From assembly GCA_964454545.1 (NCBI GenBank), contig CAYVTI010000005.1, forward strand, positions 106 through 64,105: a stretch of 64,000 bases of DNA. Direction: 5' to 3'. A program made the translations under genes and the position numbers. The stretch is from an uncultured Rickettsiales bacterium (GTDB lineage: Bacteria > Pseudomonadota > Alphaproteobacteria > Rickettsiales > JABCZZ01). The notes beneath the pieces were generated by a model. It saw only the letters and a list, made by a program, of their open reading frames with translations. It did not search any database and was not told where the DNA came from. Every line of letters starts with the position of its first letter. The first letter of the stretch is position 1. Of this stretch, positions 46,831-64,000 are shown in pieces.

Positions 46831-47874
46831 ATGAGCAAAATCACACCGCCTGAAACCGCCCCCGAAAAAGACAGCGCAGAAGGAAAAGAAGCGCACAAGG
46901 GCGGATTCGTGCAAACCCTGCGGGATAAGAGCCTGAGAATCGCCGGCGCCAGTTTTCTGGTGGCCGACTCATCACTAATCGCCTATGGCTACAAGGTGGG
47001 TGAAGGCAAAATCGCGTCCGCCGGTATCATGGGACTCACAGCCGGGTTCGTGGGCACACGTTACGGCAACCCCAAGGCCGAGAAGCAGCTGGAACAGATC
47101 TACCACCGTCTCGGATCGTACCTGCGCAAGCAGGGAGTTGAGATTCCTGAAAACCCCTCCACGGAAACGCTCGCTAAAAAAGGAGGACTCCTCGATCATA
47201 TCCAGTCTTTCCTTTATTCTCATCCTTCGCAGGTCATGAACGTATTTTACGGCCTGATCGGCCTGCAGTTCGCCCGTTCTGCAATAGAACATAAGAAAAA
47301 ATCACTTTTTGCCTCCGGCTGCCTCCTGATGAGCGGCGCGCTCGGGGGTATCCTGATAGAAGAAAAAAAGCCCGATCCCAAGCATCCGCCCGAAGGCGCG
47401 GTTCAGAAAGCCTTAAGCTGGGTGCAGGAAAAACCGCTGCGCCTCACCGGCGCGCTGTTCAATGCCAACCAGGCTTTCCTTGCACTCGATGCGCTGGGCG
47501 AGCGACGTAAGAACCCGGCAGATCACAGCTATCTGCTGAAGCTGCTGGCCGTAACCGCTTTCACGTTCGGCAATACGATGGTAGCGCTCTCTTCCAAGTC
47601 GGAAGGCGGCGGCAAGTTAGATAATAAATCCTTGAGCAATCTGGCGGAAACTTCCGCCCGCGTCATCGCCGCACAGAAACCGGAAATGCAACAGGCGCTG
47701 CTTGAACATGTCGCCGGATTCCTTGCTTCGGATCCGCGCCTGCGGATGAACGCCGAGCAGATAAGCAAAATGCTGCACGAAAAAATAGAGGCAATCAAGC
47801 AGGCGCCGCTTCCCAAGGACTGGCAGGAACGTGTCAGCAACGGCCAGAATACAGAGGCAAAGCCTACGCGTTAG
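46831..47874 (+). CDS. Membrane protein of unknown function, paralog of the 63184-64000 gene
   Basis: 347 aa. It shares WVQEKPLRLTG, FGN..VALSSKSEGGG and a C-terminal helical region with the ORF at the right edge of the window. Confidence 0.6.
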   Translation: MSKITPPETAPEKDSAEGKEAHKGGFVQTLRDKSLRIAGASFLVADSSLIAYGYKVGEGKIASAGIMGLTAGFVGTRYGNPKAEKQLEQIYHRLGSYLRKQGVEIPENPSTETLAKKGGLLDHIQSFLYSHPSQVMNVFYGLIGLQFARSAIEHKKKSLFASGCLLMSGALGGILIEEKKPDPKHPPEGAVQKALSWVQEKPLRLTGALFNANQAFLALDALGERRKNPADHSYLLKLLAVTAFTFGNTMVALSSKSEGGGKLDNKSLSNLAETSARVIAAQKPEMQQALLEHVAGFLASDPRLRMNAEQISKMLHEKIEAIKQAPLPKDWQERVSNGQNTEAKPTR

Positions 47875-58374: not shown

Positions 58375-60681
58375 ATGGCCATGCAACGCATCAGGCGCGC
58401 CGCCGTCATTGGCGCAGGAACCATGGGAAGCCAGATTGCTTCCGTTATCGCCAACGCGGGCACAAAGGTGCTGCTGCTCGATATCGTTCCTAAGGGAGCC
58501 AACGATCGCGATGTGCTGGCCAAAGAAGCCATCGAGAAACTCAAATCCTCGCGCAGGCAAGTATCCTCCAAGGATCTGGCATTAATCCAGCCTGGCAATA
58601 TGGAGGATAATCTGGATAATATCACAGAGGCTGACTGGGTGATCGAGTGCGTGCCTGAGGATGCGCATGTCAAACATGACACGTATGAGAAAGTCGGGCA
58701 GTATTTGCAGCAAGGCGCTGTGATTTCCTCCAACACCTCCACCATTCCCCTGTATAAGCTGAAGGAAGGACTTGATCCGAAATTAAGGAAACAACTCTGC
58801 ATCGCACATTTCTTTAACCCGCCTGATCAGGCGCCATTACTCGAACTGGTGGCGGATCAGGATAATGATCCAAGAGCGATAAAGCTGCTCACCGGTTTTG
58901 CCGATCGCATGCTCGGCAGGAACGTCATACCTGCAAAGGATACGCCCGGTTTCATTGGCAACCGCATCGGCATCTTCTGGATGCTGTGCGCGTTTGAGGA
59001 AGCGAAACGAAAGAATATCCCGATAGAGGTGGCAGACGCGGTGCTGAACGGCGCGTTCGGTTTCCCGAGAACCGGCGTATTCGCGCTGGCTGATTTGATA
59101 GGCCTCAGGCTTATTCCTGAAATGGCCCGATCGCTATGCGCGCTCCTGCCGGGAAACGATGCATTTTGCCAGTTCAAAGAGGGACTGAAGCTGGTGCAGG
59201 AAGTCATAGACAAAAACCCGGGCGGCCATTCCGGTTTTTATAGGAAACTGGAGGATGGCGGCGAACAGGTATTCGATCTGCAAAACGGCGAATACCGGAA
59301 CAGGAAGAAAGCCGGTATGGAGATCGAGCACTGGCATGAATTCCTGACGCAGGACTCTCAGGAAAGCCGCTTCGCCCTGCATGTGCTTACCCAAATGCTG
59401 AGTTATACGGTACATATAGCGCCCGATATAGCGGATTCGATTCTCAATATAGATGCGGTCATGCGAGACGGCTACGGCTGGAAGTACGGCCCCTTCGAAA
59501 TGATGGACCGGCTGGGGCCCTCCTGGCTCATTGAACAGATGGAAAGGGAACATCTGCATGCTCCGGCGCTGTTGAAAGAAGCGGAAGCAAAAGGTTTTTA
59601 CCGCATCCGGCCGGGCAAGGGAGTGCAGTATCTGAGTTTTGACGGCAGGTACAGGAAATGGAGTACGGGCAAAGGCAAGTGGATGCTGGCGCTTAAAACC
59701 GCAGGGACAAAACCGCTCATGGAAAACATGGCGGCCAGATTATGGGACATCGGCAATGAGATAGTCTGCTGCGAATTCACTACAAAAATAGGCGTCATCG
59801 ACGAGCGCGTACTGGATCTGCTTGCTGATGCGACAGAAACGGTGGAAAGAAGTTTTGCCGGACTTGTCATAGGACATGACGGCAAGCATTTTTCCGCCGG
59901 GCTCGATCTGCAGGTAATCGTGAAGAGCGCGGAGACCAATGACTGGAAGCGCGTGGAAAACATCCTGAAGCAGGGGCAGAACTGCATGCTGCGTATTAAA
60001 TATGCGAAGGTGCCTGTTATCGCGGCGATCTACGGTTACACGCTGGGCGGGGCGTGCGAACTGGCGTTGCATTGTTCCGCCACGCAGGCGCATGCCAGCA
60101 CGCGGATGGGACTTGTGGAAACAGGCGTTGGCGTTATCCCCGCATGGGGCGGCGCCACCGAACTGTTACTGCGCACCGTGCGGCAAAGCGGGAAGGACAG
60201 TAATAAAATTGTAAAGCAGGGTGTGATTGCGTTCAGGCAGATTGCAGAGGCGCAAGAAACTTCCGGTGCGAAGGACGCTTTTGCCAAAGGATTCCTGAAT
60301 AAACCCTCCCGCATTACCGCCAGCCGGGAACGGTTGCTGCCGGATGCAAAAACATTATGCCTGAAATTGTCGCAGAATTACAAACCGCGGGAAAGACAAC
60401 CGGTTGAAGTGCCGGTGAAAGCGCTGCATGAACGCTTCCTGCAGGAGATCAATGCGATGTCGCAAGATACCCCGCTGATAACGCCGCACCGCCGCAAGGT
60501 ACTGGAAGTCCTGGCCGGTGTCCTGAGTAGTTACAGGGCGGCGCGGACCACCGGGTATAGCGACACCGGATGGAGCATGCTTACCGAACAGCAGATATTG
60601 CATTCCACGCGTGACGCCTTCATGGAATTGGTGCAGACGAAGGAAACCATGAATATGATCAGGAAAATAGTAGCCGGGTAG
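58375..60681 (+). CDS. Fused 3-hydroxyacyl-CoA dehydrogenase (N-terminal) / enoyl-CoA hydratase-like (C-terminal) protein
   Basis: 768 aa. NAD fold VIGAGTMGSQIA with the 3HCDH core, and a C-terminal crotonase-type segment (HFSAGLDL...GYTLGGACELALHC). Starts 14 nt after phaC. Confidence 0.85.
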   Translation: MAMQRIRRAAVIGAGTMGSQIASVIANAGTKVLLLDIVPKGANDRDVLAKEAIEKLKSSRRQVSSKDLALIQPGNMEDNLDNITEADWVIECVPEDAHVKHDTYEKVGQYLQQGAVISSNTSTIPLYKLKEGLDPKLRKQLCIAHFFNPPDQAPLLELVADQDNDPRAIKLLTGFADRMLGRNVIPAKDTPGFIGNRIGIFWMLCAFEEAKRKNIPIEVADAVLNGAFGFPRTGVFALADLIGLRLIPEMARSLCALLPGNDAFCQFKEGLKLVQEVIDKNPGGHSGFYRKLEDGGEQVFDLQNGEYRNRKKAGMEIEHWHEFLTQDSQESRFALHVLTQMLSYTVHIAPDIADSILNIDAVMRDGYGWKYGPFEMMDRLGPSWLIEQMEREHLHAPALLKEAEAKGFYRIRPGKGVQYLSFDGRYRKWSTGKGKWMLALKTAGTKPLMENMAARLWDIGNEIVCCEFTTKIGVIDERVLDLLADATETVERSFAGLVIGHDGKHFSAGLDLQVIVKSAETNDWKRVENILKQGQNCMLRIKYAKVPVIAAIYGYTLGGACELALHCSATQAHASTRMGLVETGVGVIPAWGGATELLLRTVRQSGKDSNKIVKQGVIAFRQIAEAQETSGAKDAFAKGFLNKPSRITASRERLLPDAKTLCLKLSQNYKPRERQPVEVPVKALHERFLQEINAMSQDTPLITPHRRKVLEVLAGVLSSYRAARTTGYSDTGWSMLTEQQILHSTRDAFMELVQTKETMNMIRKIVAG

Positions 60682-60683
60682 CA

Positions 60684-61379
60684 TTACAGATGTTTTTCAA
60701 ACCAGTCCGCCGCAAGTCCGGCGATAGTCTCCAGCGCCCCAGGTTCCTCAAAAAGATGTGTCGCCCCTGGTATGATTTCCAGCCGCGATTTTTCATTTAA
60801 CTGTTCCAGCGCAATTCTATTAAGCCTCAGCACTTCATGATCCTCGCCGCCCACGATAAGAAATACCGGCGCTTCCACTTTCTTGAGTAGTTTTCCGGCC
60901 AGATCCGGACGGCCTCCGCGTGAGACCACGGCCTTAACGGTTTCGGGATATTGCGCCGCCATGACCAGCGCCGCGCCGCCGCCTGTGCTGGAGCCGAAAA
61001 GCCCGAGCGACAGATTGCCTATCGTCCCATGCTGCTTTATCCAGCCGGTAATGCCATACAGACGGCTGGCCAGGAGCAGGATATTAAACCGCATATGGCG
61101 GGTCTGCGCCTCCGCTTTTTCCTCTGCAGCGGTCAGGAGATCGATGAGCAGGGTGGCAAACCGGCGCTGATAAAGCATATCGGCGACGTAATGATTTCTC
61201 CGGCTGTGGCGGCTGCTGCCGCTGCCATGCGCAAAGAGCACCATGCCCTGCGGCCGCCGGGGCACGCTTAAAAAGCCTTCTAGCGTGATCCCGCCTAAGG
61301 GCACCAGAACGTCAATGTTGTTCCTCAACGGAGTCAACGTATCCAGTTCTCCCACGGTCATGTCTGTCCTGTTTGTCAA
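60684..61379 (-). CDS. Dienelactone hydrolase family alpha/beta hydrolase
   Basis: 231 aa. VLFAHGSGSSRHSRRN, the nucleophile elbow GLFGSSTGGGAAL and the C-terminal IPGATHLFEEPG. Confidence 0.75.
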   Translation of the reverse strand: MTNRTDMTVGELDTLTPLRNNIDVLVPLGGITLEGFLSVPRRPQGMVLFAHGSGSSRHSRRNHYVADMLYQRRFATLLIDLLTAAEEKAEAQTRHMRFNILLLASRLYGITGWIKQHGTIGNLSLGLFGSSTGGGAALVMAAQYPETVKAVVSRGGRPDLAGKLLKKVEAPVFLIVGGEDHEVLRLNRIALEQLNEKSRLEIIPGATHLFEEPGALETIAGLAADWFEKHL

Positions 61380-61430
61380 ATAGGAGATTGGGGAAATAAT
61401 TAATAGCGGTGTTCGCTTTTCGCTGTCACC

Positions 61431-61516
61431 GGGGCCGGAGAATATAATTTCGATAAGCTCGCGAGAGCTTATCGCTAATTTCTCCGGTCCCGAGCCTGCT
61501 AGGCAAAGCTAGCAGG
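61431..61516 (+). other. Stacked hairpins in the DUF190-crcB upstream region (candidate structured RNA or REP-like element)
   Basis: 61431-61491 has a 12-bp outer stem (GGGGCCGGAGAA/TTCTCCGGTCCC) and a 10-bp inner stem (CGATAAGCTC/GAGCTTATCG) capped by the GNRA loop GCGA. 61495-61516 has an 8-bp stem (CCTGCTAG/CTAGCAGG). Confidence 0.3.
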
Positions 61517-61693
61517 AGATTTCAAGCTACTTCGGAAAGCATAAAAAGATAAGCCTCCGAGGCTGCACATAATATAAAAATTCGGCAAAATTTCTTGATC
61601 GAAATGCGCATGCCGGAAATCCGCTTCTCAACACCTGCCGTTTTATGCTAAGTACAAGAAATAAGAAATTGAATTTCAATCATAGAGAGCGTC

Positions 61694-62059
61694 ATGCAGA
61701 TACCTCACAATGCCATTTTACTCCGCATCTTCATCGGAGAAAACGATAAACACGATACCCTGCCGCTCTACGAAGCCATCGTGCTGAAAGCGCGCGAAGC
61801 GCATCTGGCAGGCGCGACGGTGCTCCGCGGCCCTATGGGATTTGGGCACTCAAGCCGCCTGCATACGTCAAAGATCCTCCGCCTTTCCGAAGATCTGCCC
61901 CTGGTGATTGAGATGGTGGACAGCGAAGAAAAGATCAACGCCTTTCTTCCCGCGCTCAAAAAGATGATGACTGGCGGGCTGGTAACCATCGAAAAGGTGC
62001 AGGTGCTGCAATATGGCAATGACGGCGTCGCGCAGCCCGCATCACGCGCAGGAGGATGA
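61694..62059 (+). CDS. DUF190 (UPF0166) domain protein, crcB-associated
   Basis: 121 aa. LLRIFIGENDKHDTLPLYEAIVLKAREAHLAGATVLRGPMGFG...LPLVIEMVDSEEKI is the DUF190 pattern. Confidence 0.85.
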   Translation: MQIPHNAILLRIFIGENDKHDTLPLYEAIVLKAREAHLAGATVLRGPMGFGHSSRLHTSKILRLSEDLPLVIEMVDSEEKINAFLPALKKMMTGGLVTIEKVQVLQYGNDGVAQPASRAGG

Positions 62060-62063
62060 TAGC

Positions 62064-62456
62064 ATGACCTATCTCTGGGTAGCGCTGGGCAGCGCGCTGG
62101 GCGGCATGGCGCGCTACTGGATGTCCGAAGTGGTTGCGGTTGCGATCGGCGAGACGTTTCCCTGGGGCACGCTGGTTATCAATATCATCGGATCGCTGAT
62201 CATCGGATTTTTTGCCACCTACACCGGCCCGGACGGCAGGATCCTCATTCCTTCCGACATACGCATATTCGTCATGGTCGGTATCTGCGGGGGATTTACC
62301 ACTTTTTCTTCCTTCAGCCTGCAGACGCTTAATCTTGCCCGTAGCGGTGATTTCATGCGGGCAGGAATGAATGTCATCCTCTCCGTCGCGCTATGTCTCC
62401 TGTTTGTCTGGCTTGGCCATCTGGCAGCAAGCGCGCTCAATCAGATAAAAAGCTGA
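62064..62456 (+). CDS. crcB: Fluoride ion channel CrcB/Fluc
   Basis: The start is at ATG 62064, after AGGAGGA. MTYLWVALGSALGGMARYW...FPWGTLVINIIGSLIIGF...GFTTFSSFS are CrcB motifs. Confidence 0.9.
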   Translation: MTYLWVALGSALGGMARYWMSEVVAVAIGETFPWGTLVINIIGSLIIGFFATYTGPDGRILIPSDIRIFVMVGICGGFTTFSSFSLQTLNLARSGDFMRAGMNVILSVALCLLFVWLGHLAASALNQIKS

Positions 62457-62463
62457 ACATAAA

Positions 62464-62496
62464 AACGCCCCCTGTGAAGAGGGCGTTCCGTCTTTT
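62464..62496. terminator. Bidirectional rho-independent terminator between crcB and the heptad-repeat gene
   Basis: The stem AACGCCC (62464-70) pairs with GGGCGTT (62481-87). It is followed by a T-run on the + strand (TCTTTT) and preceded by AAAAA, which gives TTTTT on the - strand. Confidence 0.6.
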
Positions 62497-62510
62497 GCAG
62501 CCTTACAGTA

Positions 62511-63056
62511 TTAACGGCCGCCTTCCATTTTATGTTCATCACGATGGATTTGGCCTTTCTCATGATGAATTTCTTTCCTGTCATGGTGAACCTGGCGCTC
62601 GTCATGACGAATCTGGTGTTCATCGTGGCGGATCTGGTGCCTGTCGCGGCCAATCTGGCGCTCATCGTGCCCTATCTGGCGTTCGTCATGGTGAATCTGG
62701 TGCCTGTCTCGATCGATCTGCTGCTCCGCAGCTTTTGCGCCGGCATAGTTGCCGTTCTTCCTATCCTGCTGTTCAACAGCGCGTTCCTGCTGGATCTGCT
62801 GGCGATCACCCTGAATCTGCTGACGATCTCCCTGGATCTGACTCTGGTCATTATGAATCTGGTTGCGATCATTCTGGATCTGGTTTTCATCACGGTGAAT
62901 CTGCTGGCGATCATGATGTATCTGGTCGCGCTGGTTATCAATGCGCTGCTGATCATTGGTAATCTGGTTCATATCCTGCTGCTCCGTCTGCGCGAAAGCG
63001 GCAGCCGCCAGACTTACGCTGGCCAGCAAGGTAAGGGTGGACAATGTTTTTTTCAT
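62511..63056 (-). CDS. Secreted His/Gln/Asp-rich heptad-repeat protein (hypothetical)
   Basis: 181 aa. Signal peptide MKKTLSTLTLLASVSLAAAAFA|Q. Two arrays of about 9 heptads each (QIxxDxx, for example QIHHDRQ QIHRDEN QIQNDRN) are split by the linker NGNYAGAKAAE. The terminator lies immediately downstream. Confidence 0.7.
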   Translation of the reverse strand: MKKTLSTLTLLASVSLAAAAFAQTEQQDMNQITNDQQRIDNQRDQIHHDRQQIHRDENQIQNDRNQIHNDQSQIQGDRQQIQGDRQQIQQERAVEQQDRKNGNYAGAKAAEQQIDRDRHQIHHDERQIGHDERQIGRDRHQIRHDEHQIRHDERQVHHDRKEIHHEKGQIHRDEHKMEGGR

Positions 63057-63183
63057 AAAAGCCCCGTATTAGGATTAAGGATGAGTAAAGATACCTTTAC
63101 ACTTAATAAAGGTAGCATACGCTACATTAAAAACGTGACTCCGCTACATTAAATTTTTGTAATAAAGATAATGGCAATAGAGT

Positions 63184-64000
63184 TCAGATAGTTGGTGAAG
63201 AAATTGCGGAGCTGGCGCTGTTGGCCACGCTGTTCTGCCATTTGTTATTCTGGGCGCTATGGTTTTCTTCTTCAGTCCTGCTTTCCGCCTTTTTCTGGGC
63301 TGGAATGCCCAGCCAGGGATTATGCTCCATGCTCTCGATTTGCCCGCGTATGCCCGATTTTATTACTTCCTTGTCCAGGTTCAGGTTATCTTTCTCTGAA
63401 AGATAACCGGATACCATCTCCAGCACCTGATCACGCCTGTCCGGAGGATTGCGCAGGATCATATCCGCCATCACCGCATAGGTGGAAGGCTCAAGGCTCG
63501 AATCGCTTTCAACGCCTTTGCCATGCCCCTTGGAGGATAATGCCATCAGAGTCTCCGCCGCCAGATTCGATCCGACGAAAACCCCTCGTGAAAATATGGC
63601 GTTTCTGTCTTTCCGCGCTTCAGTGCTTTCTTTCGCAGAGGCATTTGGATCTTTTAAAGTTTTGGTTGCATTCCTGTAGTCAATAACGGTGCTCGCCGCA
63701 TGATTTACGCTGCTCAATCCCAACAATATGCCTGCCGTCCTTAAAGGTTTCTCCTCAATCCACTGCCATATGCCTGCAAGGCCTTTCTTTCTGGGCTCTC
63801 CCGGCTTGCGCGGTTCTTCATCCACAAATACCGAGACTAGCCCGGCAAGAACGGTCATAGTGCCCAGCCCCATATCAAGAAGAATAGATTTCTTGCTGCG
63901 ATCCGGAGACTTTAATTCCTTTGCGCCCTCCCAGATCAGCATGCTCCCGGCAAGGGCGAAAAAGGAATTGGCAAGCTCAGCCGGATAACGTTCAGCCTTG
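63184..64000 (-). CDS. Membrane protein of unknown function, paralog of 46831-47874 (5' end outside window)
   Basis: The track gives 63184-63942. The frame stays open upstream of that Met to the window edge (KAERYPAELANSFFALAGS-MLIWEG...). It shares WIEEKPLRTAG and ALSSKGHGKG motifs with the 347-aa protein. Confidence 0.55.
   Translation of the reverse strand, partial: KAERYPAELANSFFALAGSMLIWEGAKELKSPDRSKKSILLDMGLGTMTVLAGLVSVFVDEEPRKPGEPRKKGLAGIWQWIEEKPLRTAGILLGLSSVNHAASTVIDYRNATKTLKDPNASAKESTEARKDRNAIFSRGVFVGSNLAAETLMALSSKGHGKGVESDSSLEPSTYAVMADMILRNPPDRRDQVLEMVSGYLSEKDNLNLDKEVIKSGIRGQIESMEHNPWLGIPAQKKAESRTEEENHSAQNNKWQNSVANSASSAISSPTI

Follow-up and report, generated by a model that had tools for sequence, protein, structure and literature searches.

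An exported heptad-repeat protein, predicted to be a helical hairpin, in an uncultured Rickettsiales bacterium

The window analysed here is a stretch of 64,000 nucleotides from an uncultured Rickettsiales bacterium (GenBank assembly GCA_964454545.1, contig CAYVTI010000005.1, positions 106 to 64,105 of the forward strand). Near its end, at positions 62511..63056, the minus strand carries an open reading frame (ORF) that almost certainly encodes a real exported protein of 181 residues built from two arrays of nine Q-I-x-x-D-x-x heptads. Alignments with its relatives place this protein, called the heptad protein below, in a recurrent family that has no model in Pfam or NCBIfam, and it probably folds as a helical hairpin or as several such hairpins bundled together. 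Periplasmic proteins of small size and odd composition are often left as 'hypothetical' or are missed outright. The gene described here is real and part of a recurrent, uncatalogued module that is reused in RcnB-like and glycine-zipper envelope proteins, making it a target for a family model.

The heptad gene and its product

The coding sequence, taken from the ORF list and from codon-position statistics, ends with a stop codon at 62511-62513, and its translation is identical to the one quoted in an earlier note on this DNA. Residues 1-22 (62991..63056, minus strand) form a signal peptide, MKKTLSTLTLLASVSLAAAAFA followed by Q, with KK in the n-region, a hydrophobic core and an AFA|Q cleavage site; this n/h/c layout was read by eye. 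Ala22 and Gln23 are invariant in the heptad protein and its five closest relatives, and Ala22 is conserved in at least 90% of 19 family members. The heptad protein is not a lipoprotein since it has no Cys, and neither a lipobox nor a transmembrane segment was seen on reading the mature protein. It is presumably located in the periplasm.

The mature protein has 159 residues and uses only 15 amino acid types (Q 21%, R 13%, D 13%, H 11%, I 11%, E 8% and Gly 5.7%). Leu, Phe, Trp, Cys and Pro are all absent and there are 2 Met residues. With 34 Gln, 33 Asp plus Glu and 18 His, the chain has a grand average of hydropathy (GRAVY) of -2.18 and an isoelectric point of 6.2. Nine heptads make up the N-arm (residues 31-93; 62778..62966, minus strand) and nine the C-arm (residues 113-175; 62532..62720, minus strand). 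Between the arms lies a central conserved segment, VEQQDRKNGNYAGAKAAEQ (residues 94-112; 62721..62777, minus strand), that was delimited by family alignments and DSSP. The spacing of Ile and Val along the mature chain (7 x 8, then 6, 10 and 10 over the linker, then 7 x 9) and the number of Ile/Val pairs at a lag of seven (16, versus a mean of 2.1 and a maximum of 8 in 20,000 shuffles) agree with the nine plus nine heptads proposed in the note. Ile or Val occupies position a in 18 of 18 units, and Asp or Glu occupies position a+3 in 17 of them. The second array is rich in His, as had also been noted: 14 of the 18 His residues are in the C-arm and 4 in the N-arm.

The periodicity is also visible in the DNA, where two 21-bp arrays (62580-62700 and 62790-62913; 67-78% matches) were picked up by Tandem Repeats Finder. 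The repeats are old and diverged and do not form a slippage-prone tract. A slipped-strand contingency locus was judged unlikely because the 9-10 copies in 21-bp register are merely 61-86% identical in DNA.

Coding strand and overlapping frames

Four ORFs overlap the minus-strand gene, including a plus-strand ORF of 206 residues (62532..63152) that would encode a hydrophobic protein and is in exact codon register with the gene. These open frames could be taken to mean that there is no minus-strand gene and that the plus-strand ORF is the product, or that the region is a non-coding 21-bp repeat. The lack of an exact or near match to the heptad protein in a collection of 5.8 billion proteins would fit such an explanation, which is nevertheless very improbable and already close to refuted. 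Because the two frames are in exact codon register, position 3 of the sense codons is position 1 of the antisense codons, and the pattern of variation is compatible with the minus-strand frame only. Across the 18 heptad units, the nucleotide entropy at minus-strand codon positions 1, 2 and 3 is 0.87, 0.63 and 1.46 bits. Among the genes of G000, G005 (another genus of the same family) and G184 (same class), the differences per site at these positions are 0.36-0.38, 0.25-0.28 and 0.63-0.64, and codon differences are silent in 34-46 cases when read in the sense frame versus 12-19 in the antisense frame. The Ile column is held in 17 of 18 units by ATT, ATC and ATA, which the antisense frame would read as N, D and Y, and the Asp column is held by GAT and GAC. 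The two QIQGDRQ units are separated by three differences, all of them synonymous.

The antisense frame is itself broken in the orthologues (68 aa in G005; 135 and 93 aa in G184), and the 206-aa ORF has no match in Pfam or NCBIfam. The signal peptide, a Shine-Dalgarno-like site and the terminator all belong to the minus strand, and relatives in distant lineages retain the same protein architecture. The minus strand is therefore the coding strand and the plus-strand ORF at 62532-63152 is a side effect and does not represent a gene. Its frame stays open through the absence of TTA, CTA and TCA codons from the sense strand, an absence that in turn reflects a mature protein that lacks Leu and has its single Ser encoded by AGT. 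The mirror protein is hydrophobic because NAN codons (Q, H, D, E, N) read NTN on the opposite strand. Both the strand call of the earlier note and its view of the other four frames as products of the repeat are borne out.

Relatives and conserved features

An exhaustive phmmer search of 1.84 billion representative proteins gave 109 matches at E ≤ 1e-3 and 5 at E ≤ 1e-10, with E values of 4.5e-15 to 3.6e-10 for P0002, P0004 and P0007. Many of the long matches are plainly compositional, and the weaker matches, above all those to long coiled-coil proteins, are not trustworthy because the composition is biased. Of the 94 matches of at most 300 residues that were retrieved in this search and in a family-profile search, thirty share a signal peptide, the turn and at least three aliphatic(a)-Asp/Glu(a+3) heptad pairs. 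The family plan is a signal peptide, heptads, a G-[ND]-x-x-[AG]-A turn and further heptads.

The earlier note had proposed looking for the heptads and their neighbourhoods in other genomes, and orthologues were found in G005 (48% identity, E 1.5e-31), G184 (profile E 9.5e-32) and G001, a member of the same genus in which the gene is broken by an assembly gap (E 4.2e-27). Whole-genome searches also found diverged members in G003 and G022. The distribution is patchy, with a match at E ≤ 1e-6 in 9 of 301 sampled genomes of the class, and the window's own genome has one copy only. A related-locus search with a family alignment returned only the G005 locus. A probe for an obligate-intracellular lifestyle with PF03219 (TLC) gave no match, but the control genomes gave none either.

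On contig C51 of G001 (L003, about 1830-1845), a short run of N lies exactly inside the repeat region of the orthologue, which suggests that assemblers struggle with 21-bp periodic DNA. Such difficulty may be a reason why genes of this kind are under-represented in protein collections.

A single-sequence search of the word-indexed collection of 5.8 billion proteins gave no match to the heptad protein at E ≤ 1e-3; the collection lacks the heptad protein and its two best orthologues. Family profiles recovered only known members from it, named 'hypothetical' apart from one 'HemX' and one 'EnvC'. Pfam and NCBIfam searches with the heptad protein and 19 family members returned only sub-threshold coiled-coil noise (SMC, LPP, FlbB), and single and profile searches of PDB sequences returned nothing significant, with vimentin/toxin coiled-coil noise at E > 0.004. 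A tblastn search of plasmids gave no match, to which the low-complexity filter may have contributed. No description of a heptad-hairpin family was found in the literature. The earlier statement that the family was not recognized is thus accurate for Pfam, NCBIfam and PDB sequences, but the protein is not an orphan since it has relatives in several lineages.

Gly102 is the sole invariant mature residue in the 19-sequence family alignment. In the close clade the best conserved block is I-E-R-Q-D-x-x-S-G-N-x-A-G-A-x-A-x-Q, of which QD..GN.AGA.A is invariant. The turn motif of the heptad protein, G102-N-Y-A-G-A, sits at the modelled turn. The segment between the arrays, called a linker in the earlier note, is where conservation in the family is highest and where the turn lies.

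Composition is far more variable. Most members are rich in Arg and Asp (R 15-25%, His 1-5%), with D-R-R-D-I-R-Q as a typical unit, and the same-genus relative in G003 is a Lys/Glu/Arg version. In two orthologues His numbers 14 and 7 and Gln 43 and 54, versus 18 His and 34 Gln here, and the C-arms of G005 and G184 have lost the hydrophobic residue at several a-positions. As judged from the alignments, the family conserves its export signal, its turn, its extreme hydrophilicity and, most clearly in the N-arm, the Ile/Asp period, but not the histidine stripe. The richness in His and Gln is specific to this lineage, and the heptad protein is the Gln/His-rich extreme of the family. The stripe described in the earlier note is present in this protein, with its 14 His in the C-arm, but is not a family trait.

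Predicted fold

AlphaFold2, run with the family alignment, models the heptad protein as two helices (residues 16-100 and 104-179) joined by a turn at residues 101-103, with a predicted local distance difference test score (pLDDT) of 90.5 and a predicted template modelling score of 0.71. The N-arm and the C-arm each fall within one of the helices. DSSP places the turn at N101-G102-N103 (62748-62756, minus strand), where it coincides with the invariant Gly102. The same topology is modelled for the G005 orthologue (pLDDT 89.4) despite its lost C-arm a-position hydrophobics. The earlier note's view of a secreted and nearly all-helical protein is supported, but the note had pictured a single long amphipathic helix; the model is instead an antiparallel hairpin. 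At about 75 residues per arm and a rise of about 1.5 Å, it would be a rod of roughly 11 nm.

When residues of the two arms are paired at i + j = 205, each Ile of the N-arm is level with an Asp or Glu of the C-arm, and vice versa. Along the seam, Ile residues contributed in turn by one arm and the other would thus form a ladder with Asp, His, Arg and Gln at its edges. The strictly kept Ile(a)/Asp(d) register and the invariant turn speak for a defined fold and against a loose hydrophilic chain. Foldseek found only generic hairpins in the PDB, the best at E 0.023, with identities of 8-14%.

Module fusions and gene neighbourhoods

The heptad module also occurs in larger metagenomic and Sphingobium proteins. 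In two of them it lies N-terminal to an RcnB domain (PF11776, 'nickel/cobalt transporter regulator'; P0118, E 1.9e-22; P0122, E 3.2e-14), and the heptad regions of P0118, P0122 and P0126 match the family profile at E 1e-13 to 2e-9. In a further protein, P0138, the module is joined to a glycine-zipper 2TM domain. Because of these RcnB and glycine-zipper fusions, the heptad hairpin is seen as a reusable periplasmic module and not solely as a stand-alone protein.

The gene neighbourhoods of the heptad gene differ in every genome examined. In G005 the neighbours are a 313-aa multi-pass membrane protein and a 193-aa ORF. In G001 the neighbour is an ftsA-like gene and in G184 the neighbours are acetyltransferase-like and response-regulator-like ORFs, all three named from sequence only. 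A relative in Ralstonia sp. ASV6 is flanked by Tex and a K+ transporter. Of two further relatives, one follows a Gly-zipper lipoprotein gene at a distance of 28 bp and the other has a P-type cation ATPase about 2 kb away. On a JGI metagenome contig (L031, 3818-5176), three secreted proteins are encoded on one strand in the order of an LTXXQ (CpxP/Spy/ZraP-type) protein with a HEGHEGHKNHKNK His-rich tail, a 90-aa HMHHHHHPH protein and the orthologue P0007, which is apparently truncated or frameshifted after the turn. The fusions and neighbours hint weakly at the cell envelope and, in a looser way, at cation homeostasis or stress.

Upstream region, terminator and local neighbours

A Shine-Dalgarno-like GGGG (63062..63065, minus strand) precedes the ATG by 5 nt, and the arrangement of GGGG, T-run and ATG recurs in the G005 and G001 orthologues. 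Further upstream, the 127-bp spacer contains two exact copies of TTTAATGTAGCG with a 22-bp period (63120-63131 and 63142-63153, minus strand). These are the only two copies in the whole genome. A degenerate form of the pair, TTAATRTNGC-N12-TTAATRTNGC, has a single occurrence in each of G000 and G005 (in the latter at L002, about 2080-2115), both times upstream of the heptad gene. No further site was found in G000, G001, G003 or G005, and no regulon emerged from these genomes. The TTTAATGTAGCG pair, a candidate promoter or operator, accompanies the gene at least within its family.

The 5' leader at 63085-63125 (minus strand), between the direct repeats and the Shine-Dalgarno-like site, contains two small inverted repeats, GTAGC-GTAT-GCTAC and ACCTTTA-N7-TAAAGGT. 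Taken as a whole, the spacer does not fold better than shuffled sequence does (z -0.86).

Downstream, the heptad gene lies tail to tail with crcB (62064-62456, plus strand), whose end is 54 nt from the stop codon of the heptad gene. A GC-rich hairpin flanked by A/T runs (62464..62487, both strands) lies between them as a bidirectional intrinsic terminator shared by the two genes. Its folding energies on the two strands are -17.4 and -21.0 kcal/mol (z -2.5 and -3.2) and both its flanks have a T-run, in accordance with the arrangement described in the earlier note. The convergent gene belongs to a DUF190-crcB fluoride-resistance pair at 61694-62456. An Rfam search of 60500-64000 at E ≤ 0.1 found no fluoride riboswitch upstream of this pair (61380-61693) and gave one spurious match to an internal ribosome entry site. 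A functional tie between the heptad gene and DUF190-crcB was rejected, as the genes are convergent and crcB adjoins no orthologue; in G001 the two genes are on separate contigs. The adjacency to crcB is taken to be incidental because the neighbours differ in every genome examined.

On the upstream side and on the same strand is a gene for a 439-aa membrane protein (63184-64000, continuing to about 64503 on the contig), which matches no Pfam family. This protein is a distant paralogue of a 347-aa protein encoded at 46831-47874 (23% identity, E 4e-21). An operon with the heptad gene is unsupported, since the neighbour is missing at orthologous loci and the 127-bp spacer has its own conserved motif. 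The heptad gene behaves as a stand-alone unit with its own conserved upstream region and intrinsic terminator.

Possible functions

The function preferred here, tentatively and at somewhat less than even likelihood with its structural part included, is that of a non-enzymatic stress protein of the periplasm, serving to buffer protons or divalent cations. The product would be exported by Sec and cut after AFA, and the 159-residue mature chain would fold into an antiparallel two-helix coiled-coil hairpin of about 11 nm, each arm consisting of nine heptads with Ile at a and Asp at d. The dense Asp/Glu/His surface would reversibly bind protons or divalent cations and so act as a buffer or sponge, and protonation of His near pH 6-6.5 would alter the stability or self-association of the hairpin. 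Several points weigh against this proposal. His is not conserved (the two orthologues have 14 and 7 residues and the wider family, at 1-5% His, is Arg/Asp-rich), so a His-based mechanism is not the common function of the family, and His-mediated metal binding could be no more than an elaboration of this lineage. The neighbours with a cation theme are anecdotal, since neighbourhoods vary in all genomes examined. AlphaFold2, when given a monomer, has only intramolecular pairing to offer and tends to score helical repeats too confidently, and a single Ile per heptad is a very thin core if a two-helix hairpin is to be stable. The chain may instead bundle as hairpins, assemble as a parallel homo-oligomer or be partly disordered.

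Two other roles must be set beside the buffering protein, and each is unlikely. The heptad protein could be a periplasmic hydrophilin or LEA-like protectant against desiccation, osmotic or freeze stress in soil, acting through bulk hydration and charge with no specific ligand. Its GRAVY of -2.18, its Gly content of 5.7% and the lack of aromatic or large hydrophobic residues except Ile are in keeping with this, as is the origin of the relatives in metagenomes and metagenome-assembled genomes. The composition, moreover, drifts among Gln/His, Arg/Asp and Lys/Glu versions with the architecture kept, which fits a role in physical properties over a site-based one. The Gly content is nevertheless slightly under the classical hydrophilin threshold of more than 6%, and the turn and the strict Ile(a)/Asp(d) register are signs of a definite fold. 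The second role is that of a structural or scaffolding coiled coil, whose hairpins would self-associate (e.g. as four-helix bundles) or dock on an envelope partner as a stalk, spacer or chaperone-like clamp, the charge serving solubility and partner recognition only. The position of the module N-terminal to RcnB and glycine-zipper domains resembles that of a stalk or oligomerization element, a seam with one Ile per heptad would leave a half-exposed stripe that favours association, and the closest structural matches are hairpins of a generic interaction type (EnvC coiled coil, YscO, PspA, p85 iSH2 and the Smc arm). Against a scaffold stand the weakness of all Foldseek matches (none better than E 0.023), the absence of a conserved partner gene next to the heptad gene in any genome examined and the absence of an anchor, there being no lipobox and no transmembrane segment. 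Other roles take up the remaining likelihood.

A more far-reaching form of the buffering proposal is distinctly improbable. In it, the Ile(a)/Asp(d) hairpin would be a periplasmic ion-handling module whose roughly 18 seam carboxylates and His stripe bind protons or divalent cations cooperatively along the 11-nm rod. The coiled coil would zip, unzip or bundle with pH or metal load, and the RcnB and glycine-zipper fusions would couple this switch to envelope homeostasis. There is as yet no evidence for an unusual mechanism in the heptad protein. If the Asp/His ladder were a pH- or metal-driven coiled-coil switch, it would represent a new principle of periplasmic ion buffering and a template for switchable coiled coils. 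If it were not, the heptad protein would be one more hydrophilic envelope protein of modest interest.

Comparison with known systems

The proteins CpxP, Spy and ZraP (LTXXQ, PF07813; Metal_resist, PF13801) are, like the heptad protein, small Sec-exported, all-helical periplasmic hairpins, and they are linked to envelope and metal stress. ZraP-type proteins carry His-rich tails. These families have no regular heptad arrays, whereas the heptad protein is built of them, and it has neither the LTXXQ motif nor any Leu in its mature part. The heptad protein gave no Pfam match to LTXXQ or Metal_resist at E ≤ 1, nor did any of the 19 family members at E ≤ 0.01. A relation to CpxP/LTXXQ was rejected, since hhalign of the family profile with an LTXXQ protein aligns the signal peptide only, with 0.5% probability. 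One RcnB-fused relative has a sub-threshold Metal_resist match (16.6 versus a cut-off of 29.2 bits), which is a lead and not a match.

Small His-rich proteins such as SilE, PcoE and the Hpn and Hpn-like proteins of Helicobacter are regarded as binders of numerous metal ions at modest affinity. SilE and PcoE, which are secreted, become more helical upon binding. Hpn-like is rich in both His and Gln, but the Hpn proteins are cytoplasmic and not heptad-periodic. None of these proteins showed sequence similarity to the heptad protein in any search (Pfam, NCBIfam, PDB). The Met-containing motifs of SilE and PcoE are absent from the heptad protein, which has only the two Met residues in its mature part, and its His content is not conserved in orthologues.

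Braun's lipoprotein Lpp (PF04728), a short periplasmic heptad coiled coil, is the top Pfam line for the heptad protein, but the match is insignificant (E 0.23; 12.3 bits versus a cut-off of 29.1). Lpp is attached through its C-terminal Lys and forms a parallel trimer. The heptad protein, by contrast, has no lipobox Cys, is modelled as an antiparallel hairpin and ends in Arg.

The RcnB-family proteins with a heptad N-terminus (P0118, P0122 and P0126) share an x-[ILV]-R-x-D-R-x period and a central G-x-D turn with the heptad protein. They have a C-terminal RcnB domain, whereas the heptad protein is the module alone and has no PF11776 match. Hairpins of known structure, such as EnvC in FtsEX-EnvC (8tzl_E), YscO (4mh6), PspA (4whe; PspA/Vipp1), p85 iSH2 and Smc arms, also consist of two long helices and a tight turn (TM-score 0.56-0.73). 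At Foldseek E values of 0.02-0.5 and 8-14% identity, this is a likeness of shape only and is no evidence of common descent or function. Hydrophilins are defined by Gly above 6% together with a high hydrophilicity index; these criteria are compositional only, and the heptad protein has the hydrophilicity (GRAVY -2.18) but slightly too little Gly (5.7%). Taken from the comparisons above, the heptad protein resembles the small helical stress and metal proteins of the periplasm in kind, is unrelated to them in sequence and is set apart by its distinctive Ile(a)/Asp(d) heptad.

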